Source: a virus | Lineage: Duplodnaviria; Heunggongvirae; Uroviricota; Caudoviricetes | DNA length: 64,000 nucleotides | Reading direction: 5' to 3' (one strand) | Virus record (IMG/VR): IMGVR_UViG_3300045973_000170 | Coordinates: 62,842 to 126,841 of that record | In this document: positions 22,433-41,916 of the stretch, one piece after another | How positions within the stretch are numbered: position 1 is the stretch's first letter | Layout: each line of letters begins with the position of its first letter | The notes under the pieces: generated by a model | Databases searched by the model: none | What the model saw: the letters and a program-made list of their open reading frames with translations, nothing else | What the model was told of the DNA's origin: nothing | Position numbers and translations under genes: made by a program

Positions 22433-22507
22433 AGCATCGTGAGGGATTTGAACCCCCGCATACGGGGGTTGCAATCCCGCGCCTTACCACTTGGCCAACG
22501 ATGCATA
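22433..22507 (-). tRNA. tRNA (anticodon arm ambiguous, possibly UGC)
   Basis: T-arm GGGGGTTCAAATCCCTC and 7-bp acceptor GCATCGT/ACGATGC. Confidence 0.55.
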
Positions 22508-22509
22508 AG

Positions 22510-22582
22510 AGGGAGAAGAGGGATTCGAACCCTCGCATAGTGGTTTTGCAGACCACGGCGTTAACCGCTTCGCCATTCTCCC
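22510..22582 (-). tRNA. tRNA-Cys(GCA)
   Basis: Acceptor GGGAGAA/TTCTCCC, loop CTGCAAA, T-arm GAGGGTTCGAATCCCTC. Confidence 0.7.
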
Positions 22583-22585
22583 AAG

Positions 22586-22659
22586 TCGGGGTAGAGGGAT
22601 TTGAACCCCCGACCTCTTGCTCCCAAAGCAAGCGCGATACCAAGCTACGCTATACCCCG
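22586..22659 (-). tRNA. tRNA-Pro(UGG)
   Basis: AC arm CTTGC-TTTGGGA-GCAAG; canonical T-arm. Confidence 0.7.
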
Positions 22660-22672
22660 TCTTGTACAACTA

Positions 22673-22747
22673 TCAGGTGGGAGGGAATCGAACCCTCTTC
22701 CTCGGCTCCACAGACCGATGCTCCTACCAACTGAGCCACGCACCTGT
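22673..22747 (-). tRNA. tRNA-His(GUG) candidate
   Basis: D-arm GCTCAGTTGGTAGGAGC, loop CTGTGGA; acceptor has one mismatch consistent with His G-1. Confidence 0.6.
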
Positions 22748-22756
22748 TACAACAGT

Positions 22757-22830
22757 ACCCCTAAAGGGATTCGAACCCCCAACCTTCTGATCCGTAATCA
22801 GACGCTCTATCCAGTTGAGCTATAAGGGCA
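22757..22830 (-). tRNA. tRNA-Arg(ACG)
   Basis: D-arm GCTCAACTGGATAGAGC, loop TTACGGA. Confidence 0.6.
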
Positions 22831-22858
22831 TGATTTACTCACACATAATTTCTCCTAG

Positions 22859-22933
22859 TGCGTTGGGTGGGCTTCGAACCCACGGAATCCAGTTTTTGAG
22901 GCTGGAATGTCTAGCCATTTGCATCACCAACGC
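22859..22933 (-). tRNA. tRNA-like with 9-nt anticodon loop (CCUCAAAAA)
   Basis: Perfect 7-bp acceptor GCGTTGG/CCAACGC and T-arm GTGGGTTCGAAGCCCAC; AC stem TCCAG/CTGGA encloses 9 nt. Confidence 0.45.
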
Positions 22934-22936
22934 CTT

Positions 22937-23025
22937 CAGTGCCTAAGGGGGGCATCGAACCCCCAAGACCATTGCTGGTCGCTGGATTTTGAGTCCAGTG
23001 CGTTTGCCAGTTTCACCACTCAGGC
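22937..23025 (-). tRNA. tRNA-Leu(CAA)
   Basis: AC arm CTGGA-CTCAAAA-TCCAG plus long variable arm. Confidence 0.7.
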
Positions 23026-23042
23026 ATATCTTTACTACAGTA

Positions 23043-23113
23043 GCCTCTGAGGGAATCGAACCCGTCATCTAGGGATTCAAAGTCCCCCGCCTTAGCCGTT
23101 GGGCGAAGAGGCC
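23043..23113 (-). tRNA. tRNA-Gln(UUG)
   Basis: Loop CTTTGAA. Confidence 0.55.
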
Positions 23114-23119
23114 ATTCAG

Positions 23120-23192
23120 TTGCCCATGGTAGATTCGAACTACCGTGTTAACTTTCAGAGAGTTACATCCTAGACCGCTGGATGAATGGGCA
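23120..23192 (-). tRNA. tRNA-Gln(CUG)
   Basis: Acceptor TGCCCAT/ATGGGCA, AC arm TAACT-CTCTGAA-AGTTA. Confidence 0.6.
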
Positions 23193-23227
23193 ATAATGTA
23201 TCCTAACACACTACGCACTGCTTGTCA

Positions 23228-23301
23228 AGGTCTAAATGGGGTTCGAACCCATGGCCTCTTCCTTACCAAGGAAGTGCTACCACCAACTGAGCTATTAGAC
23301 C
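23228..23301 (-). tRNA. tRNA-Thr(GGU)
   Basis: Acceptor GGTCTAA/TTAGACC, AC arm CTTCC-TTGGTAA-GGAAG. Confidence 0.7.
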
Positions 23302-23391
23302 AAAGTGATGTGGTACCGGATGACCACGATTCGAAGAACCTATGGGCCGCTGATCGGGTATGCATTTCCCCCAACCACATCACACTTCTAT

Positions 23392-23748
23392 TTATCCTAT
23401 TCCCCAACCCACCGTGTTCTTAAACATTTCTGGCCTCTCAGTGGGCTGATAACCACCTGTCTCTTCGTCACCCACCCATGTGTACCAATACTGTTCAAAA
23501 TCTCCACCATGAAAGGGATACAGACCCGTTGTGGTTTTCTCAATCACAAGCAGGGGGTAATACCCACATTCGTAGATATCTCCATAGTTGTTTAGGGCAA
23601 CATCTATGGCTTCATCTGCCTTTCGGAAGACACCCACACAACGACTGTCAAAGCTCTCTACGGGTTTATCGTCCCGTCCAAGAATTTTGCAAAACCTAAC
23701 CGTTGTCAGTGTCCACAGTTTCATTTCTTCCCGCCTCTGTCTGCCCAT
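23392..23748 (-). CDS. hypothetical protein
   Basis: 118-aa ORF. Confidence 0.45.
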   Translation of the reverse strand: MGRQRREEMKLWTLTTVRFCKILGRDDKPVESFDSRCVGVFRKADEAIDVALNNYGDIYECGYYPLLVIEKTTTGLYPFHGGDFEQYWYTWVGDEETGGYQPTERPEMFKNTVGWGIG

Positions 23749-23909
23749 GCATTAGCCCAAACCATCGAAATGATAACAAGGGCAAGGCAAATGTTGTAGA
23801 TATCCCCTGAGGTAAGTTTCATTAGATGAACCACCATGGGGCTTTCAACAGGTCAAAGGCATTCGGGTTACCCAAATCTTTGTCGCTCATGAAAATGTCC
23901 CAAAGGAGT

Positions 23910-24479
23910 CTACGCATTGACCACCTTCCTCCATGCCCCATCTGTTCCAACCACATACCCCTGACGCTTCCTACCCTGTCCAAGGACGTACTTCTTGCCC
24001 TTGCTGTGACAAGCCGCCGCAGGACGGCCATAACGAGTGCGAAGCTTTACCACTTCCATGGCTGTCATCTTCTTTCCCTTTCGTCCAAACATGGGCATCG
24101 TTAGAAGGGAACTGAAATTGCAAGCACCAGCCACATGTTCGGCCTTGAACTTGTACTTTCCGTCTTCATCAAGCTCAAGACAGATTTCCCACCACGCATC
24201 AACCTTCTCCTTGTCCAGAGCAAGAGCCTCTTCCCCGGCCTTCTGAAAGGCTTCACGGGCCGTCTTCTGCTCTTCAGTCTCATCGATCTTCGATGGGGTT
24301 GCATCACTCAAATCTGGAATCAACCAGACACCCTTTTCACCCCATACTGTCTTCTCGGTGACATGCCACACGGGTTCCGGCTTCTCTACAAGAACGTCCG
24401 AAATTGTTTCCAGTGTCTTCATTGCCTCATCATTTTCCAACTCAGCCGAAAGACCATCGGCACTCTTCAACGCTTCCAT
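23910..24479 (-). CDS. hypothetical protein
   Basis: 189-aa ORF. Confidence 0.45.
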   Translation of the reverse strand: MEALKSADGLSAELENDEAMKTLETISDVLVEKPEPVWHVTEKTVWGEKGVWLIPDLSDATPSKIDETEEQKTAREAFQKAGEEALALDKEKVDAWWEICLELDEDGKYKFKAEHVAGACNFSSLLTMPMFGRKGKKMTAMEVVKLRTRYGRPAAACHSKGKKYVLGQGRKRQGYVVGTDGAWRKVVNA

Positions 24480-24764
24480 TTACTCTCCCATGATAAAGGG
24501 TACAACGTCAACCCGATAATTCACTACACCATCAATACACGAATGTCCGAAATCAGGATCATCAAGCTCCGTGATATACTTCTGACGAATCTCGTCCTGT
24601 TTCTCATAACTCGACTCTTTCCACTCGTCATTCAAACGGTTTGCAATTGCCTGAAGACGATCCACTTCTTTGGTGGCATCTTCATAGACCGCAAACGCCT
24701 TGACATTTCGTGAGGAAGCGTCATCGTATTCACATGTTTCACACACCAAAATGTTCATCAACAT
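24480..24764 (-). CDS. hypothetical protein
   Basis: 94-aa ORF. Confidence 0.4.
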   Translation of the reverse strand: MLMNILVCETCEYDDASSRNVKAFAVYEDATKEVDRLQAIANRLNDEWKESSYEKQDEIRQKYITELDDPDFGHSCIDGVVNYRVDVVPFIMGE

Positions 24765-24778
24765 GATTTACTCCCATG

Positions 24779-24852
24779 CCCGTGGAGGGATTCGAACCCA
24801 CTACCTTGCGTTTAGGAAACGCCTACTCTGTCCTAATGAGCTACACAGGCAA
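24779..24852 (-). tRNA. tRNA-Arg(CCU)
   Basis: Acceptor GCCTGTG/CACGGGC, loop TTCCTAA. Confidence 0.55.
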
Positions 24853-24875
24853 TCTACCCCTTAGGAAGCCGCTTG

Positions 24876-25331
24876 TCAAGTGGGGCGACCAGACAACTCT
24901 TCCCTGACCTTCATCGAAATGATTCCCAACATGTTCTTTCCTTCTCCTTCGCATACACCCCAATACTTATCACCCCAAGTATTTCCTTCAATGAGGACTG
25001 CATCACCAGTGAATAGAAGCTTCTCGCGCAAGTCCTTGTGGGTCTGAAACTTTAGCTTCACCATGGAATACATAATTTCAACCTTGATTTCCTGCCAGTT
25101 ATCACGCAACTTGACCACTTTTCCAAACTGCTTGGCTTGGGCTGGTGTAGAAGCAAACATGATCTTCTTCATCTGCTCTTCGTCCACCGTCTTGAAACCC
25201 TGAAAGGCATGTTCAACGGTTGCCACCATTCCAATACCCCTGATGAGTATTGGGGCGGGGTAGAAATTACTCAAGAAGTAATGCTCCCCACGAAATTCCT
25301 CAACGACCTTCTGCCCTAACATATTTTTCAT
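24876..25331 (-). CDS. NADAR/YbiA-like (DUF1768) protein
   Basis: HYFLSNFY ... VEHAFQ motifs typical of the YbiA family. Confidence 0.55.
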   Translation of the reverse strand: MKNMLGQKVVEEFRGEHYFLSNFYPAPILIRGIGMVATVEHAFQGFKTVDEEQMKKIMFASTPAQAKQFGKVVKLRDNWQEIKVEIMYSMVKLKFQTHKDLREKLLFTGDAVLIEGNTWGDKYWGVCEGEGKNMLGIISMKVREELSGRPT

Positions 25332-25591
25332 GACGGTTTATTTCCTCCCCACACTTGACAATTTTCTCCCCGCGCATACCACGCAGGGCAAGGAAGTTCT
25401 TTCTTCTCTTCATCGGGTTGATATCCAGTAAACGCAATTCCCCAATGAATTCTCAATGATTGCCACTCCGGATGATCGTCACAAAATGAACATTCACCGG
25501 GAGCATGAAGCACCCTAGCATCGCAATGAGGAAATTGCCTAATGGCATTAAGAACATTCGATGGAATATTCGGTTGAACTGTTTTGTACAT
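25328..25591 (-). CDS. hypothetical Cys-rich protein (start trimmed to MYKTV to avoid tRNA overlap)
   Basis: ORF-track N-terminus would overlap tRNA 25596-25668. Confidence 0.35.
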   Translation of the reverse strand: MYKTVQPNIPSNVLNAIRQFPHCDARVLHAPGECSFCDDHPEWQSLRIHWGIAFTGYQPDEEKKELPCPAWYARGENCQVWGGNKPS

Positions 25592-25595
25592 TGAA

Positions 25596-25668
25596 GCCCC
25601 CCAACGGAATTGAACCGATGACTTAACTTTACGAGAGTTGTGTTTTGCCAACTAAACTAGGGGGGCGT
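25596..25668 (-). tRNA. tRNA-Thr(CGU)
   Basis: Acceptor GCCCCCC/GGGGGGC, loop CTCGTAA. Confidence 0.55.
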
Positions 25669-26222
25669 TACTTCAACAGATGGACAAGGACTTTCGCCAC
25701 CATCCGACTGTCATCAACGCCACGATGCGCCCTTCCTTCAAACATGCCAAGGTCTTCTGCACACTTACCCAATCCAGCATTGTAGCCGTACTTGGCCGCA
25801 AAGAGTGTCTTGACATTCAAATGCATATTGCTAAATGGATAACCCGTGTTGTTCCATTTGCAATTCTTCTCAAAGGACTTCCGATCATAGTCACCCCAAG
25901 AAGCAAAGATATTCTTGGCTGGCTTGTATTTCTGATCCATATAATCCAATGCCTGATGAAACGTCCTTCCTTCGGCCAGAATCAACTCATCAGTAATACT
26001 TGTCAGTTGGACACAGAACGGGGAAATCTCTGTGGTTGGGGGAATCACGATGATACCCTCTGAAACCCCAATCACCCTTGTCTTCACATCAACCGGGGTA
26101 ATACCAATCTCAATGATTTCGTTCCTCTGCTCTGGGAACTTGTTGGGTGGTCTGCCTTCCCAACACGTTGCCTCTATGTCGATGCACAGGATCGTTTTTG
26201 GCGTACTCATTGAATCCCCCAT
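25668..26222 (-). CDS. DEDD-family 3'-5' exonuclease
   Basis: Exo I motif CIDIEAT and downstream acidic motifs. Confidence 0.5.
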   Translation of the reverse strand: MGDSMSTPKTILCIDIEATCWEGRPPNKFPEQRNEIIEIGITPVDVKTRVIGVSEGIIVIPPTTEISPFCVQLTSITDELILAEGRTFHQALDYMDQKYKPAKNIFASWGDYDRKSFEKNCKWNNTGYPFSNMHLNVKTLFAAKYGYNAGLGKCAEDLGMFEGRAHRGVDDSRMVAKVLVHLLK

Positions 26223-26421
26223 AATGAAGTTCTTTGTTCCTTACACTTATTGTATGCGTAATTCGAATGCTTGGTATTCTTTTTCCGTTGTTCAGGTGTG
26301 GCTTGAATGTCACCACACACTGAACAACGGTTAAAGCGAATCTCGAAATTCACATGCTTAGGCGGGGTTACCCGCTTCCGTTGCTCTGCCAATTCGTGAG
26401 CGCATGTTTCAGACGGACAGT

Positions 26422-27099
26422 TCATAGACATTCTACCTCTTCAACGTCAAGGATTCTGACAAAGTAACTACCCGCATCATGATGCACCTTCTTGTGCATA
26501 TGACCTGAATATACACGCTTGGGATTCGTTTTGGCAATAGCCTCTGCCACCAAGTGGGATGAAATGTCCACCCAATTTGACGGTAGACCCCAACTCTCGG
26601 TGTTGATCATCGGAAAGTTGGAAAGAACCGTAGTCGGTGGAGGACAGTGGGTAATCAAAACATCCAACGGCTGACCACCAACATTCTTCACCAGACGCGC
26701 CACATCCTCTTCAGTGATTCTCTCCTGCTCCCACCACTCTTGGCGAGGGGGTTTGGTGTGACGCCACGCCTTGTCAACAGACTCAGCACCACCAAGGAAC
26801 CCAATGCGAAGACCTTCCATGGTCAACACCATCCCGCGAGGGATGTAGAAGAGATTCTTTGCCACTTCCTTCACCTTCGTCTTGGGCCACTCACCGATGA
26901 TATCAAAATTCTCATGATTGCCGTCGATGAAATAGACCGGACACTTGATTGCAGGGTAGAGATGATTCCACTCCATGACCATGCTGTGGGACACACCGAA
27001 ATCACCCACCTGAATGACAATGTCATCCTTGGTCACAAAGCGGTTAACTTTGACCATCGCCTCATAATACCCATGAATGTCACCCATCAGATAGATCAT
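26422..27099 (-). CDS. calcineurin-like metallophosphoesterase
   Basis: GDIHG ... GDF ... GNHE motifs. Confidence 0.6.
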   Translation of the reverse strand: MIYLMGDIHGYYEAMVKVNRFVTKDDIVIQVGDFGVSHSMVMEWNHLYPAIKCPVYFIDGNHENFDIIGEWPKTKVKEVAKNLFYIPRGMVLTMEGLRIGFLGGAESVDKAWRHTKPPRQEWWEQERITEEDVARLVKNVGGQPLDVLITHCPPPTTVLSNFPMINTESWGLPSNWVDISSHLVAEAIAKTNPKRVYSGHMHKKVHHDAGSYFVRILDVEEVECL

Positions 27100-27123
27100 A
27101 TCAATACCTCTGTAAAATTGTTC

Positions 27124-27196
27124 AAGCGGGTGATGGGATTCGAACCCACTGCAACTAGTTTGGAAAACTAGTGTTCAACCATATGAACTTCACCCG
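27124..27196 (-). tRNA. tRNA-Gly(UCC)
   Basis: Acceptor GCGGGTG/CACCCGC, AC arm CTAGT-TTTCCAA-ACTAG. Confidence 0.7.
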
Positions 27197-27201
27197 CATT
27201 A

Positions 27202-27286
27202 CGGAACCGGAGGGACTTGAACCCCCATGTGCCTTTCGACACGACAGTTTAGCAAACTGTTTCCTTACCATTCGGAACACGATTCC
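27202..27286 (-). tRNA. tRNA-Ser(GCU)
   Basis: AC arm ACAGT-TTGCTAA-ACTGT, long variable arm. Confidence 0.65.
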
Positions 27287-27288
27287 AA

Positions 27289-27663
27289 CTACGTTGTTAC
27301 TCTCACTGGTGTTCCACCCTTCTTAGAGTATTCCACCATATGTTTTGTTCCCTTGGAAGCACCAATGTTGCCGTGAAACGCTTCCACCACATCAGGGTGA
27401 GACTTGTCATACATCAACTTGTTTCGCACTGGCCCTGCCGCCCTACCATACCGTTCCCAATCAGCCTTAACCTCTAGTACATCGAAGCCTAGCTCTTCAG
27501 CAACTTCTCTGGCAATGGTGTCAGCCCCACGCGCACCACCCTCTACTATCAATGTAGTCAGGGGATCGTAGTCTGTCAAGACCCCGCGAATCTTTTCACG
27601 ATCCGTCCAGTTACGATCCCCTGTTACTAAGACAACCTTTACATATTCATGCCGTTCTTTCAC
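27289..27663 (-). CDS. hypothetical protein (Rossmann/SLOG-like)
   Basis: VVLVTGDRNW ... LIVEGGARGADTIA pattern. Confidence 0.35.
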   Translation of the reverse strand: MKERHEYVKVVLVTGDRNWTDREKIRGVLTDYDPLTTLIVEGGARGADTIAREVAEELGFDVLEVKADWERYGRAAGPVRNKLMYDKSHPDVVEAFHGNIGASKGTKHMVEYSKKGGTPVRVTT

Positions 27664-28627
27664 GGAACCTCTCGTACTGAGTGTTGTACTCTACACAAAC
27701 GTCCAAGCAGTTCTTTGAACAGATCGGGTCAGCCTTGGTGTCATGATTCTTGGCCCACGCTTCTCTGTCAGCCCTGAACCCCTCCTTCAACTCACCAATT
27801 GCCGCCCCACTCTCTCGCAAGTAGATGATGCAGGGATAGTGCTTCCCTTCCAAGATGGCCACATCATCCAAAACCAAAGAGCATCGTGAGGCATCACCGT
27901 CACGCAATCCACGCACTGGCAAGCTACGCTGGATGTTTCGAATTCTGTAAGCCAAGATCGGATACTTGTCCAACAAATCCTTGCTAACCTGAACATTGTT
28001 GAGTTTATCTCCATCCTGTGCCGCTGGAATGATACGAATGTCTGCCACACCCAAGGAATCAGCGAAACGAATAATGTCTTCAATTGATCCCTGATTGGCC
28101 TCAGTCAAGACTACACCAACTGTGGTGTAGACCAACGGGGATAGACGCTTGATGGTCGCTACAACGGCATCCCAAGCTCCTGAGACACCACCAGCCATCT
28201 TGTCGCCATCCTCTGCACAACAGGCATCCAACGAGATTGAGAAGTCGTTGACACCAGCATCGATCAAGCCCTGATAGATCGGCCAGATGCGCGAACCGTT
28301 TGACGAAACCGCAATGCGCTCAACTCCGCGAGCCTTGGCATACAACACCAAGTCTTCCAAGCCAGCGTACATCGTCGGCTCACCACCAGAGAAACGAATG
28401 TTTTTCAATCCCTCTTCGGTCAACTGCCAAATGGTCTTCAACGCTTCATTGATATCCAAGTCTGGGCCACCAATGCTACGGCAGTACGGACACTTGAAGT
28501 TGCATCGGCCTGTCAACAGAATTTCACCACGCTGTAACGGAGTGGTAGCATTTGCTGAACGACAACGCGCATCAGTCATAGTGTAGAATCCAATATCGTT
28601 TAACGAAATCACTGGTCGCGCTGTCAT
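27647..28627 (-). CDS. radical SAM enzyme with C-terminal Cys-rich (SPASM-like) region
   Basis: CNFKCPYC and RFSGGEPTMY motifs; C-terminal Cys cluster. Confidence 0.6.
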   Translation of the reverse strand: MTARPVISLNDIGFYTMTDARCRSANATTPLQRGEILLTGRCNFKCPYCRSIGGPDLDINEALKTIWQLTEEGLKNIRFSGGEPTMYAGLEDLVLYAKARGVERIAVSSNGSRIWPIYQGLIDAGVNDFSISLDACCAEDGDKMAGGVSGAWDAVVATIKRLSPLVYTTVGVVLTEANQGSIEDIIRFADSLGVADIRIIPAAQDGDKLNNVQVSKDLLDKYPILAYRIRNIQRSLPVRGLRDGDASRCSLVLDDVAILEGKHYPCIIYLRESGAAIGELKEGFRADREAWAKNHDTKADPICSKNCLDVCVEYNTQYERFRERTA

Positions 28628-28639
28628 TGTTACCCCCTG

Positions 28640-29299: not shown

Positions 29300-29314
29300 T
29301 ACTGCCTCATGGTG

Positions 29315-29388: not shown

Positions 29389-29392
29389 AAAA

Positions 29393-34426: not shown

Positions 34427-34433
34427 CAGTAGA

Positions 34434-35279: not shown

Positions 35280-35355
35280 TAGCGAATGAGAGATTCGAAC
35301 TCTCATGGTGTCCTCATCCCGAATGAGGCGGCTTATCCTGTTAGCCCAATCCGCT
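35280..35355 (-). tRNA. tRNA-Pro(CGG)
   Basis: D-arm GGCTAACAGGATAAGCC, AC arm CCTCA-TTCGGGA-TGAGG, T-arm GAGAGTTCGAATCTCTC. Confidence 0.65.
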
Positions 35356-36330
35356 AGAATTTGTGAGGGGTTGAGAATACACCCATCGTGGCTGTCCTTT
35401 CAAGGGATTATGAACCAGTGTCCCCACCGATCTTTCCCCTCTTTTCCACTTCCGCGAGGAAGTTGACAACCGAAGCAGTTCTCTTTAAGGTCTGAACAGT
35501 ATGACCGTCATCTAGTGCTACTCAACCTTTTCTCTACCACCGACCTTGCGAGCCGTTCGGAGTCGCTAAACCCCTATGTGCGAGTCTGGATCGAAGATTG
35601 TCGGGCTTGGGGCCGTTCAATCTGCCCTCTTCCTTGCGGGAAGGCATTATGCCACTTTTGGCACTTAGACCGAGGAAGTCTTTCCTTTTTATATTCTCTT
35701 TATCTCAATTAAAGTGGGCTGTTAACCCTGAATGTGAACTTTGAGTGAAGTGCTTCCTCAGTTGTTCCAATAGCTTTTGGCTATCAGAATGCAACACTCC
35801 ACGGCTACCGTTCGCCTTGCTCTGGCTACTTGATCATGCTTCTGGATTTAGGGCGAAGCTATTGAGAATAGCACTTCGCTCAAACCTCATGACATTCACG
35901 GAAAGCCCTATGGTGCAACCCATCGGACAATCTTGCGTGTATCCGTTACCGATCCGTTTTCGAATAGTTGGTTGTGTGCAGTACCCGACACCACTCGTCA
36001 GTCTTCGTTACTTGCCTTCCCTTGCGGGGGCGTCAGCAACGCTTTCTTCTGCACCTACTCTTCAAACATATCTCCACCTTCTTAGGGATGAAGCGGGGAT
36101 GTTCGAATATCCCCTCAGTCGGACTTGTTTGGATGAACCAACCTTGCGGCTGGCGGGGGTTACAAAGATAAGCCCCTTTATGCACCTTACGATGCACTGC
36201 TCTTTGGGAGTCCAAACACCCCAATTTCCTACTTCTCAATCAGCCTCCACCATGTGGGAGTCCCGTCATCGCCTTGGTAAGCTTTACCTCACCAACTAGC
36301 TGGTAGGTTTCTCCCTCTGTTTCTGAAGGA
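35356..36330 (-). ncRNA. ~1 kb ORF-free structured RNA with co-linear islands of small-subunit rRNA similarity
   Basis: No minus-strand ORF. TTGACA-N17-TAGCTT promoter at 36335-36363. GNRA-type hairpins (CCCGCAAGGG, CGCAAG, CTTCGG). Minus-sense segments match universal 16S blocks in 16S order. Confidence 0.5.
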
Positions 36331-36334
36331 CAAC

Positions 36335-36363
36335 TCCTTCGAAACCATGAATGAAGCTAACAC
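36335..36363 (-). promoter_or_regulatory. sigma70-like promoter (TTGACA-17-TAGCTT) driving the rRNA-like ncRNA
   Basis: Motif on minus strand immediately upstream of ORF-free region. Confidence 0.45.
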
Positions 36364-36367
36364 CTTG

Positions 36368-36805
36368 TTAGTCTCTTGTCAAGCCCCTGAACGAATTTTG
36401 TTCCGAAGGAATCACATCAAATGAAGAAATCTCGTAGTCATCTTGTATTTCGTTGACACCTGTTTCTTCATTCAACTTCAAAGACCCAATCCCGCGAGGA
36501 ACAACCGTAAGGTCAAATCCATTTTCCAACATATCCTTAAGGACTTTCCCCTGCGGGGTGTCCAAGACTTCAATTTCTGCATCAACGATATCACCATCCC
36601 ATGAAAAGGATGTTACCATATGTGAAACGTTCTTAAGGTTGATTGTGGGGGTTTCCCCTACTCCCAACTCACCTAAGGCTCTCCTATCCTTAACATACTT
36701 CTCTTCGTATTCTTTGAGAGCCTTTTCAAAGACTGCCCGTGGATAGATACGATGGTTTAGATTTGGCTTATCTACCACCATTACTGGCCCGACAATGATT
36801 TTCAT
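36368..36805 (-). CDS. hypothetical protein
   Basis: 145-aa ORF. Confidence 0.45.
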   Translation of the reverse strand: MKIIVGPVMVVDKPNLNHRIYPRAVFEKALKEYEEKYVKDRRALGELGVGETPTINLKNVSHMVTSFSWDGDIVDAEIEVLDTPQGKVLKDMLENGFDLTVVPRGIGSLKLNEETGVNEIQDDYEISSFDVIPSEQNSFRGLTRD

Positions 36806-37299
36806 CGATCATCCTTTAGCAAGTCATTAAGAACATCCCACATTTTCAACACAGGATAGCTCGCCATCCCAATGGGCTGTCGAAGAGCCTCTTGAAACGC
36901 CACATGTTCATTGCGATACATGTCAATCTTTCCACCACTCTCTACGTTGGCGATACGGTCTGCCAACTTAATCATGATGGCATAAGTACCGTATTCAAGA
37001 ATCTTGGGATACTGAATCGCATGTTTCTCTTTGCGAGTCCCCGTCTTTGGATTCGTGACGGCCAACACCAAATCTGCAATGTGTGGGCCAAACTCCCATG
37101 CCAACTCGCCATACTCTGTGTCTGTGTCTTCCAACACATCGTGCAAGGCTCCCGCCGAAACAACAATATGCGGGGCGTTGAACTCATGAAGGATGCTCAC
37201 CACACATGCTAGATGCACCATGTACGGAACACCTTCCCCGTACTTTTGATCACCGTGTTTCACGGCGACATAATGCAATGCTTTTTGAATGACTCTCAC
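36802..37299 (-). CDS. HD-domain phosphohydrolase (SpoT/Mesh1-like ppGpp hydrolase fold)
   Basis: HGDQ ... HL ... GALHDVLEDT motif set. Confidence 0.6.
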   Translation of the reverse strand: MRVIQKALHYVAVKHGDQKYGEGVPYMVHLACVVSILHEFNAPHIVVSAGALHDVLEDTDTEYGELAWEFGPHIADLVLAVTNPKTGTRKEKHAIQYPKILEYGTYAIMIKLADRIANVESGGKIDMYRNEHVAFQEALRQPIGMASYPVLKMWDVLNDLLKDDR

Positions 37300-37315
37300 A
37301 ATACCTCCATGATTA

Positions 37316-37386
37316 GAAAGCGGGTGACGGGGATCGAACCCGTGATTTCATCCTTGGCAAGGATGCACATTACCACTCTGCTACAC
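37316..37386 (-). tRNA. tRNA-Gly(GCC)
   Basis: Acceptor GCGGGTG/CACCCGC, AC arm CATCC-TTGCCAA-GGATG. Confidence 0.7.
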
Positions 37387-37890
37387 CCGCAATAACTCTA
37401 CTGCTCTATCGACTGCACTCTTGAAACGCTTATCATAAAATGCAATTGCATTATGATCCTGCTTCTCCATCTTTTCTGACAACCACCCAAGAATCTGAAC
37501 CGTTTCTTCTTGACTCATCGGTGGTGGTGTTTCCTCTGATAACGCTTCCTGTATGATACTGATGATAGCACCCGACAAGTCTTCTGTCAAGCCCCCACCT
37601 TCAGATTTTATCTTCACGATGGACAACACCGACACAAAAGAGTGGCCATGTTCAGTATATCCCTTATGTGTCCTCTGTTGCAATTCACCCATTGATTCGG
37701 AAAATGGATCATCAAAATCAATGCCAAATTCAATTCCCAACTGAAAAATCATTTCAGCCTTAAGCTTGGTGTAGAATTCCGTAGTACTCTGCTTCTTCCT
37801 GAATAACACCATCAAAACGTCAGTGTTTACCACCGTTCGTATTTCAGCGGTGTTCTCATCAATCTGGCGAAGTACTACGGAACAGAACTC
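37387..37890 (-). CDS. hypothetical protein (start at MEFCSVV)
   Basis: Start taken as internal Met of ORF 37381-37986 to avoid overlap with GroES gene. Confidence 0.4.
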
Positions 37891-37892
37891 CA

Positions 37893-38186
37893 TTAGCGAT
37901 GGAACCCGAAGATGTTGCGCTCTGCAACGACCTTGAAATCCTTGCCATCCAAACGGATCGTTGACGCATGACCCTTGGCATACCACACGGTATCACCAAC
38001 CTTGCATAGCATCTCGCCACGCTGACCACCATCAAAGATATGACCGGGGCCAACTGCCACAACGGTACCACTGGTAATCTGACCACTTCCCGTTACGCTC
38101 TCTGGGAGAACCAAACCTGATGCGGTCACTGACTCTTCTGCTTTGGACGGACTGATGATAATGTTGTCGCCACATGGATTAAACAT
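37893..38186 (-). CDS. GroES-like co-chaperonin (Cpn10)
   Basis: LVLPE ... GTVVAVGPG ... VGDTV motifs. Confidence 0.6.
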   Translation of the reverse strand: MFNPCGDNIIISPSKAEESVTASGLVLPESVTGSGQITSGTVVAVGPGHIFDGGQRGEMLCKVGDTVWYAKGHASTIRLDGKDFKVVAERNIFGFHR

Positions 38187-38427
38187 CGCTCTTCCTCTCA
38201 AAAATGGATTGTATTGCATCAACCTTCAATTGTCCTACTGCTTCATCCAAAAGTCTCACGAATGAGTCTTTAGGAGAAATGCTTTCAAACACCGATTTGT
38301 CCATCATATCTTCAGGAGAAATTGCAACACTCAAAACGTAATATGGTCTGAATGTTTCAGAATCCATTATTCGCTTTATGTCCGTTTTGTACATGTGAAG
38401 CCTCACTATAGTGAATGATGAACTACA

Positions 38428-38502
38428 ACAGGCCGGAAGGGATTCGAACCCTTAAGTTTGACAGTTTTGGAGACTGTTGGCCTTCCTGATGGCCCTCCGA
38501 CC
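38428..38502 (-). tRNA. tRNA-Trp(CCA)
   Basis: D-arm GGCCATCAGGAAGGCC, AC arm ACAGT-CTCCAAA-ACTGT. Confidence 0.65.
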
Positions 38503-38507
38503 TATAA

Positions 38508-38579
38508 ATGCCCCCTACAAGAATTGAACTTGTTCTGTTAGTTTCGAAGACTAACGTGCTTTCCGGCACACTCAAGAGG
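38508..38579 (-). tRNA. tRNA-Arg(UCG)
   Basis: AC arm GTTAGT-CTTCGAA-ACTAAC, T-arm ACAAGTTCAATTCTTGT. Confidence 0.6.
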
Positions 38580-38656
38580 CTTGATGGTTGTGGTGGGGTG
38601 AGGCCCACTTTGATGTAATCGGTAGGTACATGCCTTGCCTACACAACCTATTTAGA

Positions 38657-38740
38657 TGGAGCGAGTGGGTGTCGAACCCACATTCCGGTAAGTCTCAGGG
38701 GGCTAGTAGATGTTCGAAGCACCCTCCCCTAAACCTCACC
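38657..38740 (-). tRNA. tRNA-like element, structure unresolved
   Basis: T-arm GTGGGTTCGACACCCAC; acceptor pairing incomplete. Confidence 0.3.
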
Positions 38741-39012
38741 ATTGCGTCACGATATCGCTTCTCTCTGTTTTCATGGTACCACTACTCACAGGCTTCAGCT
38801 ACCGCCCCGTAATCTTTTCTTGTAATTCTCGCCAATCCTTTTCACTTTCGAAAGAACCCTTTTGGATAGCTTCAGTCATCTTTTCCTGACACAGCTTGGC
38901 CAATGCAATACGTTCAAAAGTGTTTAATGGAATTTCCCTAATATCTTCTCTGGCACTAGGTGTTGGCGTTATGCCTACGCTGTTTGTCATATGATACTTC
39001 CTTAAAGTGTGA

Positions 39013-39086
39013 TAGCTCTCAGGGGAATCGAACCCCTCTCTACTGACTGAGAATCAGTTGTCCTTTACCGATAGACGAGAAAGCCG
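39013..39086 (-). tRNA. tRNA-Glu(CUC)
   Basis: AC arm ACTGA-TTCTCAG-TCAGT. Confidence 0.55.
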
Positions 39087-39193
39087 TGAGGCAGGGGTTC
39101 AGGTCGCTCCATCCTGAGTAGCCGTTCACCCGTCCGAAGAGGGTTAGCTGTGAAACGGGTTCAGGCACATGGCCCTCAATGCCCCGACCAAGT

Positions 39194-39270
39194 ACGGGTG
39201 GTTGGAATCGAACCAACGTGTCGCCTCCTACCCTTTCAATCGTTTATAAGACGCAGGGGATACACCCGCA
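39194..39270 (-). tRNA. atypical tRNA-like element (no D-arm; anticodon-like loop CTTATAA), paralog of 32851-32932
   Basis: Acceptor GCGGGTG/CACCCGT, T-arm GTTGGTTCGATTCCAAC, conserved 3' half GATTGAAAGGGTAGGAGGCGACACG. Confidence 0.35.
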
Positions 39271-39475
39271 AAATTCACTAATTGATATGAAAGGATGAGG
39301 GAAGCTTACCAAAAGCATCTGCCAACCAAGCCAGCGCACAAACCACCCACACAAACCATACCACTTTCTTTGTATCTGGGATGAAATAGATTACAGCACC
39401 ACCAATGAGCAACACAATCAACAATAGATACAATGTCATTTTTACCTTCTTTGAAGAGGTTGATCGTATTTATAC

Positions 39476-39552
39476 AGCGCGAGAGGGAGGATTCGAACCT
39501 TCCAAAGCTTCCTACTTTGTTCTAGACCGTTTCGGAGTCGCATACCCCAGAT
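39476..39552 (-). tRNA. tRNA-like element with degenerate acceptor
   Basis: T-loop TTCGAAT and AC-like hairpin CAAAG-TAGGAAG-CTTTG; acceptor pairs 4 of 7. Confidence 0.3.
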
Positions 39553-39600
39553 TAGTTGTCTGGTGACTTTATCCATTTGTCTACCCTCGCAATTCATACA

Positions 39601-39674
39601 TGCACCGCATGGGATTTGAACCCACATCGTGAAGCTTAAGAGGCTCCTGTAATTGCCGTTTATACTAACGGTGC
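39601..39674 (-). tRNA. tRNA-Lys(CUU)
   Basis: AC arm GGAGC-CTCTTAA-GCTTC. Confidence 0.6.
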
Positions 39675-39791
39675 GTTGGTGAAGCAATGACCAAGGGCGG
39701 TGACCTTGTCCTTAAGGATGCTGACACATTCCTATTGGATGGGGCTTGAGAACCTGTCAGAGTCCTTGTTCCCCTGAGACTTGCTTCTATT

Positions 39792-40202
39792 TTAGTAACT
39801 TTTTCCTTCTTTATATCGTTTCATTCTCCACGCTCTTCCATTGCCTTTATTCAAAGCTCTGAAATTTGATTGTAAAGAATGACAATTGGGACAAATGATT
39901 CTTCCATTTTCTGGTAAGTTGTTCTCACTGTTCCCATCAATATGATCTAATTCTGTTGGAACATTATTAGTAATAGGATTGCGTTCTTCCCATCCACACA
40001 ACATACATTGTTCTCCGTATTTGTCGATCAAATATCTTCTGAGCATTCTTGGAGTTAATGTTTTTTCATCAACTCTTTTTTGTCTCTGATATTCTTGTTG
40101 ACACTTCCCAGAACAATACAACCCCTTATTAACTTTTGAACACGAAAATTCTGTTTCACAATTCAAACATATTACCACTTTCTTTGGATTTGTCCACGCC
40201 AT
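39792..40202 (-). CDS. HNH homing-endonuclease-like protein
   Basis: ELDHIDGNSENNLPENGRIICPNCH HNH motif plus N-terminal Cys-rich zinc ribbon; AT-rich relative to neighbours. Confidence 0.6.
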   Translation of the reverse strand: MAWTNPKKVVICLNCETEFSCSKVNKGLYCSGKCQQEYQRQKRVDEKTLTPRMLRRYLIDKYGEQCMLCGWEERNPITNNVPTELDHIDGNSENNLPENGRIICPNCHSLQSNFRALNKGNGRAWRMKRYKEGKSY

Positions 40203-40259
40203 ATAATCTCCTTTTGAGTTAACGACACTATCTGTATTTATACATGTCGTAAACTCTAG

Positions 40260-40332
40260 AGCTAACGGTGGGATTCGAACCCACGGCGTCTAAATTACAA
40301 GTTTAGAGCATTGACCGCTATGCTACGTTAGC
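40260..40332 (-). tRNA. tRNA-Thr(UGU)
   Basis: Acceptor GCTAACG/CGTTAGC, AC arm CTAAA-CTTGTAA-TTTAG. Confidence 0.7.
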
Positions 40333-40495
40333 AAGATGATCATAAAGAAACTCTACGTTATTGCGACATAGTTTGAGAATTGATGTTGATTCATTGTACT
40401 CCCTTGAGAATGAGTTCGCATTTCTTCTCTCAGGTCTAGCCGAATCTCTCCTATTCTTTAGATCAAATCGTCACGGGAGCTTATCTCCGCAACAG

Positions 40496-40575
40496 TAATC
40501 GCAATGGGGGTCGAACCCATATTAACCCCGCGAAGGGGGCTGTCCTGCCCTTAGACGATGCGTTTCGGCTATACG
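40496..40575 (-). tRNA. tRNA-like, extended D region
   Basis: T-arm ATGGGTTCGACCCCCAT, acceptor AATCGTA/TGCGATT; internal hairpin GCCCC-CTTCGCG-GGGGT. Confidence 0.3.
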
Positions 40576-40667
40576 ATTAGGATTGCAGTCCCTTTCTAAA
40601 CCGTGTCTTACTTCCTTTTCATGAACCCTGCAAGGAACATTCAAAGAAGCCCAACAGTAGCCCCAAT

Positions 40668-40739
40668 GGGAGTCGAACCCATCTTCTCACCTTGAAAGGG
40701 TGGTGAACTAGCCGATATTCGATGAGGCCAAATTTTACA
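40668..40739 (-). tRNA. tRNA-Glu(UUC)
   Basis: AC arm CACC-CTTTCAA-GGTG. Confidence 0.6.
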
Positions 40740-40742
40740 ACA

Positions 40743-40816
40743 TAGCAGTGACGAGATTCGAACTCGCGTTACTCAGATTGAAGGTCTGGTTTACTAGGCC
40801 ACTATAAGACACTGCC
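40743..40816 (-). tRNA. second tRNA with UUC anticodon (C at position 33)
   Basis: AC arm CAGA-CCTTCAA-TCTG. Confidence 0.45.
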
Positions 40817-40900
40817 AAACTTGAAATCTGCGACAATATTAATGACCTTTGTTCTTACCTCTTGGAACGGTCAGGCAAGCGACAGATTTCTTTACTACAG

Positions 40901-40974
40901 TGCGCCCACAGAGAATCGAACTCTGGTCTGAGGGTTAAAAGCCCCCTGCTACTGCCAATTGAGCTATAAGCGCA
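40901..40974 (-). tRNA. tRNA-Lys(UUU)
   Basis: AC arm GGGGG-CTTTTAA-CCCTC, T-arm CAGAGTTCGATTCTCTG. Confidence 0.65.
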
Positions 40975-41159
40975 TAATGCTTAGAAGATGTACGGTCTTC
41001 CTTCCCGCTGTTTCACAAGCCCACCACAAGCCTTTACGCGAGGCCATGGCCAATCCCGATTATCTCTTGCGATCAAGCTACGGCACGTTGAGCATTGCAA
41101 CGCTGTCAAATGAAGCAAATGTCCGGTGTCCTGACCGCTAGACGAACGAGAGGCGTGAA

Positions 41160-41242
41160 CCAATCGTACAGGATTCGAACCTGTGTTTCCAGAGCTTCCG
41201 GTTGAATAGGCTCTTACCTTTCGGTATTGTAGGCGTCCGATC
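41160..41242 (-). tRNA. tRNA-like, structure unresolved
   Basis: T-arm ACAGGTTCGAATCCTGT; acceptor only 4 bp. Confidence 0.3.
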
Positions 41243-41275
41243 AACGCCTCGTTACTTCCTATTCCAAGTTTTATG

Positions 41276-41363
41276 CAGTGCGGATAGAGAGATTCGAACT
41301 CTCAAGACCGATAAAGGTCTACAGGTTCCTAAGACCTGCGCGTACTTCCATTCCCACCATACC
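41276..41363 (-). tRNA. tRNA-Leu(UAG)
   Basis: AC arm CAGGT-CTTAGGA-ACCTG plus long variable arm. Confidence 0.65.
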
Positions 41364-41581
41364 CGCATAAACTACCATAATCATCATCAGTTGTCAATTA
41401 GCACTCTTTCAATCTAACCCCTTACACTCTTGTTGTCAAGGGGTACTTCAATCTTCTCAGTGGGACTTGAACCCACAAACCTCCATAGATGGCAATCTAC
41501 TTTGGTACCGGATTCAGGTGTGTTGCCACACACCCTTGGCCAGCGTGTTTCCCATTTTCACCATAAGAAAACTCTTCGTAA

Positions 41582-41669
41582 CGGATAGTGAAGGATTCGA
41601 ACCCTCGTCACCCTTTCGGGGTGTGCTAGTTTTCAAGACTAGTGCGATAGACCACTCTGCCAACTATCC
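41582..41669 (-). tRNA. tRNA-Ser(UGA)
   Basis: Perfect acceptor GGATAGT/ACTATCC, AC arm CTAGT-CTTGAAA-ACTAG, long variable arm. Confidence 0.7.
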
Positions 41670-41838
41670 ATTTTTGGTCGATCACCCATGCCAACGTGTG
41701 ATCGCTTGCGTCAGTAACGTATCCTTACAGAATGAAGTGTATTCCATTTCGCCAGAGACATTGTCCCCTGAATGGCTACTTTGCATCATCACTCACGCGC
41801 TTCCCCTTACGGGGTCAGGCTGGTGTACTGAACCAAAG

Positions 41839-41916
41839 TGGTCGATGTAGGATTCGAACCTACGATCATAAGCCTGTGTGTAGGACAGGTGCCTTGGGCC
41901 TCTGGGCGAATCGACC
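41839..41916 (-). tRNA. tRNA-Val(UAC)
   Basis: Perfect acceptor GGTCGAT/ATCGACC, AC arm CCTGT-CCTACAC-ACAGG. Confidence 0.65.

Follow-up and report, generated by a model that had tools for sequence, protein, structure and literature searches.

A large phage tRNA island with two candidate isoleucine tRNA genes that lack a D arm

Known systems and the locus

Transfer RNAs (tRNAs) without a D arm are known from animals, in mammalian mitochondrial tRNA-Ser(AGY) and nematode mitochondrial tRNA-Ser (PMC7609411, PMC4013460). A 2020 review of non-canonical tRNAs reports D-arm loss in animal mitochondria only and leaves phages unmentioned (PMC7609411), and in a 2024 paper every known bacterial tRNA is said to be a cloverleaf (PMC11551756). 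Here we describe a 64,000-nucleotide (nt) stretch of phage DNA (Caudoviricetes; positions 62,842 to 126,841 of IMG/VR record IMGVR_UViG_3300045973_000170), hereafter the window, which bears on its minus strand a tRNA island at 22432-41916. Two genes of this island carry isoleucine anticodons and have no D arm. In the full-text literature, with subscription journals mostly outside its scope, we found nothing relevant on D-arm-less or other non-canonical phage tRNAs.

We consider it probable that the region, as a whole, is a phage tRNA island composed of 39 cloverleaf genes, two D-arm-less genes that would supply isoleucine, degenerate copies and one GOLLD RNA. As for the D-arm-less genes, we propose, with a probability of about 0.55, that they represent a conserved phage class of full-length tRNAs without a D arm (anticodons GAU and UAU for Ile; UCU, ACG and UCG for Arg), which are charged and used on bacterial ribosomes and provide the sole tRNA-Ile of the window phage and of Microbacterium phage Magritte.

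Like the mitochondrial D-arm-less tRNAs, the phage RNAs have an anticodon arm that is effectively longer. They differ in being full-length (77 nt), with a canonical T loop (UUCGAUU), a T stem of 5 base pairs (bp) and a 13-nt connector 3' of the anticodon arm, and in bearing Ile or Arg anticodons in viruses of bacteria rather than being encoded in metazoan mitochondria. As there is no evident sequence relationship between the two, the D arm was probably lost independently in phages. The allo-tRNAs (PMC5389517) are likewise non-canonical, of bacterial or metagenomic origin and overlooked by standard annotation, but they keep the D arm and have 8/4 or 9/3 acceptor and T stems, whereas the phage genes are 7/5 without a D arm.

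Neither D-arm-less element has a match to transfer-messenger RNA (tmRNA) or Y RNA in Rfam at E<=1, and no Ro-like protein was found in the window. The YrlA Y RNAs have a tRNA-like domain and are bound by Ro-like proteins; their ends form a Ro-binding stem in place of the anticodon arm. The likeness to them lies in tRNA mimicry, and Magritte and Streptomyces phage LilMartin encode Ro-like proteins near their tRNA islands. By contrast, the D-arm-less phage RNAs have a normal anticodon loop, and their ends pair as a normal acceptor stem.

Large tRNA islands are well known in phages, with 41 tRNAs in Streptomyces phage Coruscant (PMC7650747) and up to 67 in huge phages (PMC7162821). The island described here resembles these in its dozens of co-oriented tRNAs among small open reading frames (ORFs) and homing-type endonucleases, in its near-complete coverage, and in a metallophosphoesterase and a band-7 protein nearby. 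It differs in that isoleucine is covered by D-arm-less genes only, and its proteins are dissimilar apart from one weak phosphoesterase match. An earlier note on this DNA, made from the sequence alone, had placed the island near the upper end of phage tRNA complements, which the above counts show to be overstated: the island is real, phage-borne and large, yet ordinary for a big phage.

Two genes with isoleucine anticodons and no D arm

The two genes are 77-nt paralogues with 81% identity, 6.3 kb apart. Here and in the later lists, bit scores refer to the Rfam tRNA model, mostly in a region-only scan, unless another model is named, and ARAGORN stands for default settings unless stated.

32868-32944, minus strand: D-arm-less gene, loop CUGAUAA (GAU, Ile); Rfam tRNA 31.7 bits; models R1/R2 106/96 bits
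39193-39269, minus strand: D-arm-less gene, loop CUUAUAA (UAU, Ile AUA); Rfam tRNA 26.7 bits, below gathering score; model R1 106.5 bits

The gene at 32868-32944 is laid out as a 7-bp acceptor stem, the triplet UAU, a 3-bp outer helix, a 4-bp anticodon stem, UUGAAA, the 13-nt connector UAGGAGGCGACAC, a T arm and a discriminator A. The gap between the acceptor and the anticodon stem is 8 nt. Three of these nucleotides (11-13) pair beyond the 3' end of the anticodon hairpin, with positions 37-39, so that the hairpin is carried on an outer helix. Aligned to the Rfam tRNA model, this gene has 4 nt where the model has 15 D-arm positions, 18 nt inserted in the variable region, and GAU in the anticodon loop. 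In both genes the discriminator A is followed by CUUG and the T arm is perfect (GUUGG-UUCGAUU-CCAAC). Both anticodon loops have 7 nt with U33, A37 and A38; GAU reads AUU and AUC, and UAU reads AUA. The two copies differ at 16 columns, 15 of which lie in helices that nevertheless remain paired (37/38 cells, five compensatory pairs), the last being anticodon position 34. ARAGORN made no call on the isolated elements in relaxed or mitochondrial modes.

A small cysteine-rich ORF upstream of the GAU gene (32903-33130, minus strand) reads 42 nt into that gene. It stops at the invariant connector UAG in the window, and likewise in the related contig L095 (1696-1917); the overlap is absent in the other members described below.

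Relatives in unrelated phages and covariation of the fold

A pattern search with the conserved connector gave full-length homologues in four metagenomic contigs, and a protein-guided look-up added one more. The gene order Phe, Val, Met, ..., Tyr, element, Asn, Ala, Asp is common to the window and three of the homologue contigs. In contig L090 (Ga0208587_1006005), a UAU member at 393-469 lies at a contig end of 49.5% GC; the remainder has 63-68% GC and encodes AbgB-like M20 peptidases, and the site may mark the edge of a prophage, or a mobile element, in a bacterium of high GC content.

By BLAST of GenBank phages we found a member in Microbacterium phage Magritte, whose complete 133-kb genome has 26 tRNA genes in one island and none for Ile, Met or His. 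Its GAU member occupies an unannotated gap between tRNA-Cys and tRNA-Ala, and adjoins a second gene of the same architecture with the loop GUUCUAA (UCU); the pair lies at 73536-73612 and 73446-73522. The Streptomyces phages Coruscant, LilMartin, MulchMansion and Angela carry a GAU member between nucleotidyltransferase and FtsK-like genes, either unannotated or overlapped by the annotated FtsK-like coding sequence (CDS). The LilMartin gene is at 73463-73540 of that genome. In LilMartin (L102 4458-5073) and Coruscant (L103 4462-5072) the GAU gene is directly downstream of the 'nucleotidyltransferase' gene, whose product of 173 amino acids (aa) could be a dedicated CCA-adding or repair enzyme.

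Since the window phage and these actinophages share no protein similarity beyond the phosphoesterase match, the RNA class is common to unrelated phages. The window lacks counterparts of the accessory proteins that LilMartin and Magritte encode (nucleotidyltransferase, Ro-like, RNA ligase, kinase, DnaQ-like, FtsK-like and rIIB-like). When IMG/VR was scanned with exact patterns of the conserved core, no match came up; the class seems to be absent from IMG/VR, or else has diverged at the bases chosen for the pattern.

For covariation we used nine distinct members (the two of the window and those of four metagenomic contigs, Magritte, Coruscant and LilMartin), which align almost without gaps. Across the alignment 97.1% of cells are paired, 16 of the 19 pairs change on both sides, and all four helices covary. 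No column shuffle out of 500 reached the observed covariation score, and sliding the partners by 1-3 columns left 31-52% of cells paired. Compared with a cloverleaf, the members have the 7-bp acceptor stem, all seven pairs of which covary, with discriminator A in 8/9; a 5-bp T stem with a 7-nt UUCRANY-type loop (100% of cells paired, 2/5 pairs covarying); and an anticodon loop of 7 nt, in which position 33 is U and position 37 a purine, on a stem of four pairs (4/4 covarying) instead of five. Between position 9 and the anticodon stem there is no D arm, and the outer helix covaries at 3/3 pairs. The unpaired segments are nearly invariant: UAU (8-10), CU, UUGAAA, UAG..GG..CAC and the T loop.

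Several candidates were discarded. A reading as tRNA-Phe was considered for the invariant UUGAAA(G/A), which stands at the place of an anticodon loop (the related contig L082 has a tRNA-Phe there), but no flanking stem forms, and it is the GAU/UAU hairpin that covaries. The outer-helix register 8-41 to 12-37 proposed by RNAalifold breaks a pair in L090 and gains no compensatory change, against three for 11-13/37-39. The sole match in a genome collection (L094, a Polyangiaceae metagenome-assembled genome) is a chance one, inside a high-GC coding region and without an acceptor stem. Finally, the metagenome match L093 (PVBE011472056.1) 2617-2660 is something else, a minimal tRNA-like hairpin that consists of a 7-bp stem (GGAGGCG/CGCCUCC), ACAC and a T arm, followed by ACCA, and has neither a D nor an anticodon arm.

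A sister type bearing arginine anticodons

With a model made from these nine members, three further candidates were recovered: LilMartin 85682-85756 with the loop CUUCUAA (UCU), the neighbour of the Magritte GAU member, and 10654-10732 of IMG/VR contig L049 with the loop CUUCGAA (UCG). BLAST with the LilMartin gene extended this Arg type to 29 phage records, namely 26 from Streptomyces phages, one from Rhodococcus phage NiceHouse (loop CUACGAA, which gives ACG) and two from Alishewanella phages. Six members are built alike: the acceptor stem has 7 bp, the D arm is missing, the anticodon arm is long and bulged, and a UAA(U/C)GGA connector leads to the T arm. In this group 94.2% of cells are paired, with both sides changed in 10 of 20 pairs.

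In the public records most Arg-type genes have no feature at all. Mildred21 has "tRNA-OTHER" at this place, an Alishewanella phage "tRNA-Ser", and NiceHouse a hypothetical CDS on top of the gene. The Rfam tRNA model gives the Arg-type gene of Magritte 31.9 bits and does not detect its Ile-type gene, so that the absence of the Ile type from annotation is explained by its escaping the general tRNA model. Because such genes are missed or mislabelled in GenBank, phage tRNA complements and their "missing" isotypes are miscounted.

Proposed decoding of isoleucine and function of the island

Codon usage was computed from 75 minus-strand ORFs of the window (14,663 codons). The cloverleaf genes cover 19 amino acids and, with wobble, almost all codon families in use; the amino acid they leave out is isoleucine, which takes 918 of the 14,663 codons (ATT 0.52, ATC 0.40, ATA 0.09). 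No cloverleaf tRNA-Ile (GAU or UAU) was found in the window by ARAGORN with default, relaxed or intron settings or by Rfam, and no tRNA of any kind within ~10 kb either side of it. Of 80 IMG/VR loci that share the radical SAM protein of the island, one (L001) has a comparable tRNA island, and it has a normal tRNA-Ile(GAU), directly upstream of a tRNA-Asn with a long variable region; in the window the D-arm-less gene stands exactly there.

We propose that several sigma-70-like promoters would give rise to long precursors that also carry small ORFs, from which host RNase P and 3' processing enzymes would cut out the tRNAs. None of the tRNA genes encodes CCA, so that their products need a CCA-adding enzyme; in 21 of 39 genes, the two D-arm-less ones among them, the discriminator is followed by CU. 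Mature tRNAs would then feed phage translation by reading codons poorly served by the host, by replacing host tRNAs that shut-off or tRNA-cleaving defences have removed, or in both ways. Among the ORFs scanned there is no aminoacyl-tRNA synthetase, CCA-adding enzyme or translation factor, and with no CCA encoded the tRNA set would still depend on host enzymes. The interpretation given in the earlier note is partly supported, and the strong translational autonomy that it suggests is an inference.

It is possible, though in our view somewhat unlikely, that the island serves mainly as a counter-defence reserve, which replaces host tRNAs destroyed during infection, rather than to match codons. Its tRNA set is nearly complete instead of targeted, with tRNAs for common and rare phage codons alike, and its ORFs include NADAR, SLOG, HD and phosphoesterase domains (listed below). 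These domains occur in conflict systems centred on nucleotides or nicotinamide adenine dinucleotide (NAD). Phage tRNAs are also known to escape tRNA-targeting defences (PMC10264068, PMC11555353, PMC11464382). However, the duplicated tRNAs tend to fall on preferred codons: TTG, which makes up 0.35 of the Leu codons, has two Leu(CAA) genes, and GAA, 0.59 of the Glu codons, has two Glu(UUC) genes. For comparable low-GC phages of high-GC hosts, such as Coruscant (48% vs 72%), codon supply is the usual explanation (PMC7650747). The two roles are not exclusive.

Within the island, the D-arm-less RNAs would be transcribed, processed, charged with isoleucine and used by the ribosome as the other tRNAs are. 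In their predicted fold, the outer helix, internal loop and anticodon stem would together reach about the stacked length of normal D and anticodon stems, and the purine-rich, GG-containing connector could take over the contact of the D loop with the T loop. A single scaffold that comes with several sense anticodons, and whose acceptor end and T loop are normal, has the look of a tRNA. The lack of any other tRNA-Ile here and in Magritte, the position held in L001 by a normal tRNA-Ile, and the CU trailer shared with neighbouring tRNA genes all favour real isoleucine adaptors, as far as can be judged from gene sequences.

Several points weigh against this proposal. LilMartin has the D-arm-less GAU gene together with annotated cloverleaf tRNA-Ile(GAU) and tRNA-Ile(UAU), so the class is not always the sole Ile adaptor and another role is possible; similarly, Magritte has a normal tRNA-Arg(UCU) beside its D-arm-less UCU gene. 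Bacterial isoleucyl-tRNA synthetase, as studied in E. coli, uses elements of the D stem, which is absent here. Moreover, a cloverleaf tRNA-Ile could lie in the remaining ~44 kb of the 126.8-kb source, and the solid CAU tRNA at 34423-34496 could be a lysidine-type tRNA-Ile2.

Some of these points would equally suit RNAs that are structured but do not decode, and that mimic tRNA-Ile or tRNA-Arg for a protein that recognises tRNAs, with isoleucine codons left to host tRNAs; we judge this unlikely. Such a protein could be a nuclease of host defence that cleaves tRNAs, or else a modification enzyme or synthetase. Coexistence with normal tRNA-Ile in LilMartin and with normal tRNA-Arg(UCU) in Magritte is what mimicry would allow, the unusually invariant unpaired segments suggest a specific binding surface, and phage tRNAs counter anticodon nucleases, retron effectors and PARIS (PMC10264068, PMC11555353, PMC11464382). 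On the other hand, every feature of charging and decoding that can be read from sequence has been kept (the 7-bp acceptor stem, discriminator A, the T loop, and U33 and A37 within an anticodon loop of 7 nt), one scaffold bears several different sense anticodons, and two phages with otherwise broad tRNA sets have no other tRNA-Ile. The redundancy in LilMartin says little, since many isoacceptors are duplicated there.

That the non-canonical elements are decaying, functionless pseudogenes left by duplication or recombination within the island fits the evident degenerate copies at 34249-34341, 34346-34416 and 40495-40565 and the five aberrant elements without a detectable homologue in the fetched loci, but is highly improbable as a general account and, as far as sequence can tell, excluded for 32868-32944 and 39193-39269, whose four helices are kept by compensation across nine members from unrelated phages.

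If the D-arm-less RNAs are indeed isoleucine and arginine tRNAs, they would be the first tRNAs without a D arm outside animal mitochondria, and would overturn the statement that all known tRNAs of bacterial systems are cloverleaves. They would also raise the question of why phages favour such a fold, possibly as an escape from host tRNA-targeting nucleases or for independence from D-arm recognition. Functional members would show how much of the tRNA core bacterial translation can spare, and would offer a natural scaffold for orthogonal tRNAs. As cultured phages (of Microbacterium, Streptomyces, Rhodococcus and Alishewanella) carry members, charging, ribosome use and three-dimensional structure are directly testable.

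Cloverleaf-type genes of the island

ARAGORN called 38 tRNA genes in the whole window, all on the minus strand within 22432-41916: ten in a tight block at 22432-23301 and 28 in a 17-kb block at 24776-41916, where they are mixed with small ORFs. The Rfam tRNA model gave 35 matches at gathering score in the whole window, 34 of them within the island range, and 36 plus one just below threshold when the region alone was scanned. The two finders agree at 34 loci. Rfam adds a second tRNA-Glu(UUC), with its match at 40743-40816, which ARAGORN accepts only at a relaxed threshold, and four loci were called by ARAGORN alone (Tyr 33105-33193, Phe 34849-34922, a weak CAU at 34346-34416 and a Glu-like one at 40495-40565). 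The union is 39 cloverleaf-type genes for 19 amino acids, among which 34346-34416 and 40495-40565 are doubtful. With the two D-arm-less genes and five aberrant tRNA-like sequences, the total in the range is 46. Matches to the T-loop motif G[GT]TCRANNC number 67 on the minus strand and 15 on the plus strand, a bias that argues against a chance pattern; 43 of the minus-strand matches lie inside tRNA calls. Independent finders thus place clustered, co-oriented genes in a 19.5-kb stretch of a phage genome.

The earlier note had counted about 48 tRNA or tRNA-like genes in two minus-strand blocks. The blocks and the strand are borne out by 38 ARAGORN and 36 Rfam genes. Its number is close to the 46 tRNA-like sequences and too high for normal tRNAs (39). 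Its list of isotypes is corrected to two Cys, four Leu and two Asn; a tRNA-Ala(UGC) with G3:U70 had been overlooked, and its three CAU tRNAs become one solid gene and two degenerate copies. The cloverleaf-type genes and degenerate copies are as follows, all on the minus strand.

22432-22504, minus: tRNA-Cys(GCA); ARAGORN; 60.2 bits
22509-22582, minus: tRNA-Cys(GCA), copy 2; ARAGORN; 65.4 bits
22585-22659, minus: tRNA-Pro(UGG); ARAGORN; 67.5 bits
22673-22746, minus: tRNA-His(GUG); ARAGORN; 50.3 bits
22755-22829, minus: tRNA-Arg(ACG); ARAGORN; 64.1 bits
22858-22933, minus: tRNA-Leu(CAA), 76 nt, without long variable arm; ARAGORN; 43.8 bits
22939-23025, minus: tRNA-Leu(CAA), long variable arm; ARAGORN; 48.2 bits
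23040-23113, minus: tRNA-Gln(UUG); ARAGORN; 48.5 bits
23119-23192, minus: tRNA-Gln(CUG); ARAGORN; 55.1 bits
23228-23301, minus: tRNA-Thr(GGU); ARAGORN; 64.4 bits
24776-24851, minus: tRNA-Arg(CCU); ARAGORN; 55.6 bits; promoter-like TTGACA-N17-TAGATT ends at 24851
25595-25666, minus: tRNA-Thr(CGU); ARAGORN; 57.1 bits
27125-27197, minus: tRNA-Gly(UCC); ARAGORN; 61.5 bits
27201-27287, minus: tRNA-Ser(GCU); ARAGORN; 47.3 bits
29322-29397, minus: tRNA-Arg(UCU); ARAGORN; 38.9 bits
29400-29474, minus: tRNA-Leu(UAA), 75 nt, without long variable arm; ARAGORN; 55.0 bits
31277-31350, minus: tRNA-Asp(GUC); ARAGORN; 45.8 bits
31427-31504, minus: tRNA-Ala(UGC), G3:U70; ARAGORN; 37.9 bits; paralogue of adjacent tRNA-Asp (repeat analysis)
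32300-32372, minus: tRNA-Asn(GUU), weak copy; ARAGORN; 35.7 bits; overlaps 3' end of endonuclease VII ORF
32773-32853, minus: tRNA-Asn(GUU), 10-nt variable-region extension; ARAGORN; 54.2 bits
33105-33193, minus: tRNA-Tyr(GUA), long variable arm; ARAGORN; Rfam tRNA-Sec model only, 34.9 bits, below threshold
34249-34341, minus: degenerate CAU tRNA copy, loop CUCAUAA; T-loop motif; ARAGORN -ps80; fold
34346-34416, minus: tRNA(CAU), doubtful; ARAGORN only; no Rfam match at E<=1; one acceptor mismatch, weak D arm
34423-34496, minus: tRNA(CAU), Met or Ile2; ARAGORN; 54.5 bits
34596-34671, minus: tRNA-Val(GAC); ARAGORN; 53.6 bits
34849-34922, minus: tRNA-Phe(GAA); ARAGORN; no Rfam match; syntenic Phe in L089 and L095
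35279-35355, minus: tRNA-Pro(CGG); ARAGORN; 52.6 bits
37319-37390, minus: tRNA-Gly(GCC); ARAGORN; 67.9 bits
38428-38504, minus: tRNA-Trp(CCA); ARAGORN; 48.2 bits
38509-38580, minus: tRNA-Arg(UCG); ARAGORN; 47.7 bits
39013-39085, minus: tRNA-Glu(CUC); ARAGORN; 50.6 bits
39601-39674, minus: tRNA-Lys(CUU); ARAGORN; 52.4 bits
40259-40332, minus: tRNA-Thr(UGU); ARAGORN; 70.2 bits
40495-40565, minus: degenerate Glu-like copy, 6-nt anticodon loop; ARAGORN 'tRNA-???'; no Rfam match; 78% identity with paralogue 40657-40729
40657-40729, minus: tRNA-Glu(UUC); ARAGORN; 47.0 bits
40742-40817, minus: tRNA-Glu(UUC), copy 2; 49.5 bits; ARAGORN only at -ps90
40900-40973, minus: tRNA-Lys(UUU); ARAGORN; 57.1 bits
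41278-41366, minus: tRNA-Leu(UAG), long variable arm; ARAGORN; 42.0 bits
41581-41670, minus: tRNA-Ser(UGA); ARAGORN; 51.3 bits
41838-41916, minus: tRNA-Val(UAC); ARAGORN; 48.6 bits

The tRNA-Tyr is backed by a syntenic Tyr gene in the related contigs L089, L091, L092 and L095. Some single genes have unusual features. The tRNA-His has an apparent C at position -1 opposite a discriminator G, where bacteria usually have G-1:C73. The short Leu-anticodon tRNAs at 22858-22933 (CAA) and 29400-29474 (UAA) have a 5-nt variable region, although bacterial tRNA-Leu is normally long-armed, and they coexist with long-arm Leu(CAA) and Leu(UAG). The paralogues tRNA-Asp(GUC) and tRNA-Ala(UGC) are 84% identical over the D and anticodon region, and the Ala copy has gained G3:U70; the pair looks like an isotype switch after duplication.

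Aberrant tRNA-like sequences

The observation in the earlier note that several members do not fold canonically was correct: two of them are the conserved D-arm-less genes, and the others remain aberrant elements. One is the degenerate CAU copy at 34249-34341, whose T arm is poor and which carries a 5'-side insertion. The rest, with an outlying gene, are:

38655-38771, minus strand: loop CUUCGAA on an extended arm; T arm, acceptor 6/7; ARAGORN -ps90 Arg(tcg) 38655-38749
39477-39590, minus strand: hairpin loop CAACUAA; acceptor stem, D arm, ~46-nt variable region, T arm; ARAGORN -i; fold
41142-41252, minus strand: T-arm-like hairpin ACAGG-UUCGAAU-CCUGU in a longer helix, then Glu-like D-arm sequence; motif, fold
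41451-41571, minus strand: Leu-like, long variable arm, with a 7-bp tetraloop hairpin replacing the anticodon loop; ARAGORN -i; fold z -2.91, 0/200 shuffles as stable
14373-14462, minus strand: outlying tRNA-like gene; Rfam tRNA 40.3 bits in the whole-window scan; ARAGORN -ps90 and -i; fold

The element at 38655-38771 is rejected as a D-arm-less member by model R2, which matches its T arm only. The stable fold of 41451-41571 is consistent with a function, which it may have. Both this element and 39477-39590 follow a normal tRNA (Ser UGA and Lys CUU, respectively), and they share the motif CAAAGUAG in their long variable arms. The outlying gene at 14373-14462, flanked by an AAA-ATPase-like ORF and a small one, combines a well-formed acceptor stem, D arm and T stem with a 7-bp anticodon stem, a 15-nt loop and the T loop UUGGAAU. 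No homologues of the elements at 34249, 38655, 39477, 41142, 41451 and 14373 were found in the fetched loci. Judging by their similarity to neighbouring genes, some of the aberrant sequences are evident degenerate duplicates.

GOLLD RNA

GOLLD RNAs are known near phage tRNA islands and form 14-mer cages (PMC12286853). The island contains one, which is absent from the earlier note:

35368-35802, minus strand: GOLLD RNA, conserved domain; Rfam RF02032, 174.5 bits vs gathering 150, model 1-416/416, E 8e-48
35803-36360, minus strand: probable variable 5' GOLLD domain; no ORF of at least 70 aa on the minus strand; fold z -4.13

The match scores above the gathering threshold over the full model, and tRNA-Pro(CGG) starts 12 nt downstream of it. 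In its full length, its phage location and its position inside a tRNA island, directly upstream of a tRNA (PMC12286853), it agrees with the family, from which no difference appeared as far as tested; by sequence it is a new member. None of 100 shuffles was as stable as the non-coding stretch of ~565 nt upstream of the match, which is probably the variable 5' domain, its extent being drawn from the absence of ORFs and the fold z-score.

Phage context, island ORFs and promoters

There is no close relative of the window among 50,697 GenBank phage records; its sequence is also present in one Logan assembly. Nearly all of its ORFs are on the minus strand, so that tRNA genes and phage genes are co-oriented. 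They encode, among others, a ribonucleotide reductase, NAMPT, an ATP-dependent DNA ligase, a primase, a T4-type RNase H, ThyX and a band-7 protein, and just beyond the window lie genes for a family B DNA polymerase (PolB), UvsX, a DnaB-like helicase, RegA and a clamp-loader subunit. The NAMPT is similar to that of Gordonia and Mycobacterium phages, which together with the actinophage link gives a weak hint to the host. The island ORFs with a Pfam match are:

24876-25331, minus strand: NADAR domain ORF; Pfam PF08719, 1.1e-27
25668-26222, minus strand: RNase T / DnaQ-like 3'-5' exonuclease ORF; Pfam PF00929, 1.3e-12
26422-27099, minus strand: metallophosphoesterase ORF; Pfam PF00149, 1.2e-13; phrog_1649
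27289-27663, minus strand: YspA/SLOG family ORF; Pfam PF10686, 5.3e-14
27647-28627, minus strand: radical SAM ORF; Pfam PF04055, 1.4e-20
31507-32286, minus strand: ATP-grasp, R2K clade ORF; Pfam PF18299/PF14243
32335-32754, minus strand: endonuclease VII-like (homing-type) ORF; Pfam PF02945, 1.7e-8; between two tRNA-Asn copies
36802-37299, minus strand: HD_4 domain ORF; Pfam PF13328, 1.3e-13

Many other island ORFs have no Pfam or PHROGs match, and PHROGs gave nothing for 8 of the 10 island-region ORFs scanned. Genes linked to NAD or ADP-ribose lie in or near the island (24876-28627 and 61628-63975, minus strand), namely those for NADAR, SLOG/YspA, the metallophosphoesterase, NAMPT and a phosphoribosyltransferase-like ORF. 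From the arrangement of its sequence, 32300-32853 looks like a homing-endonuclease insertion with target duplication. At the endonuclease VII position, the related contig L082 has only a 78-aa ORF.

The island contains 41 sigma-70-like promoter sites, vs 26.4 +/- 5.0 in shuffles, and the ten best are all on the minus strand; several read TTGACA-N17-TAGATT. The motif recurs on the minus strand at 23200-23228 (with TAGGAT), 24851-24879, 29602-29630, 31680-31709 and 41411-41439, often within a short hairpin-forming repeat, and some copies are just upstream of tRNA genes.

The window yielded no tmRNA and no gene for an RNA ligase, a polynucleotide kinase or a Ro-like protein. The phage contig L016 (IMGVR_UViG_3300025115_000007), which shares the radical SAM protein, has a tmRNA (5769-6127, 138.9 bits) beside its tRNA cluster.

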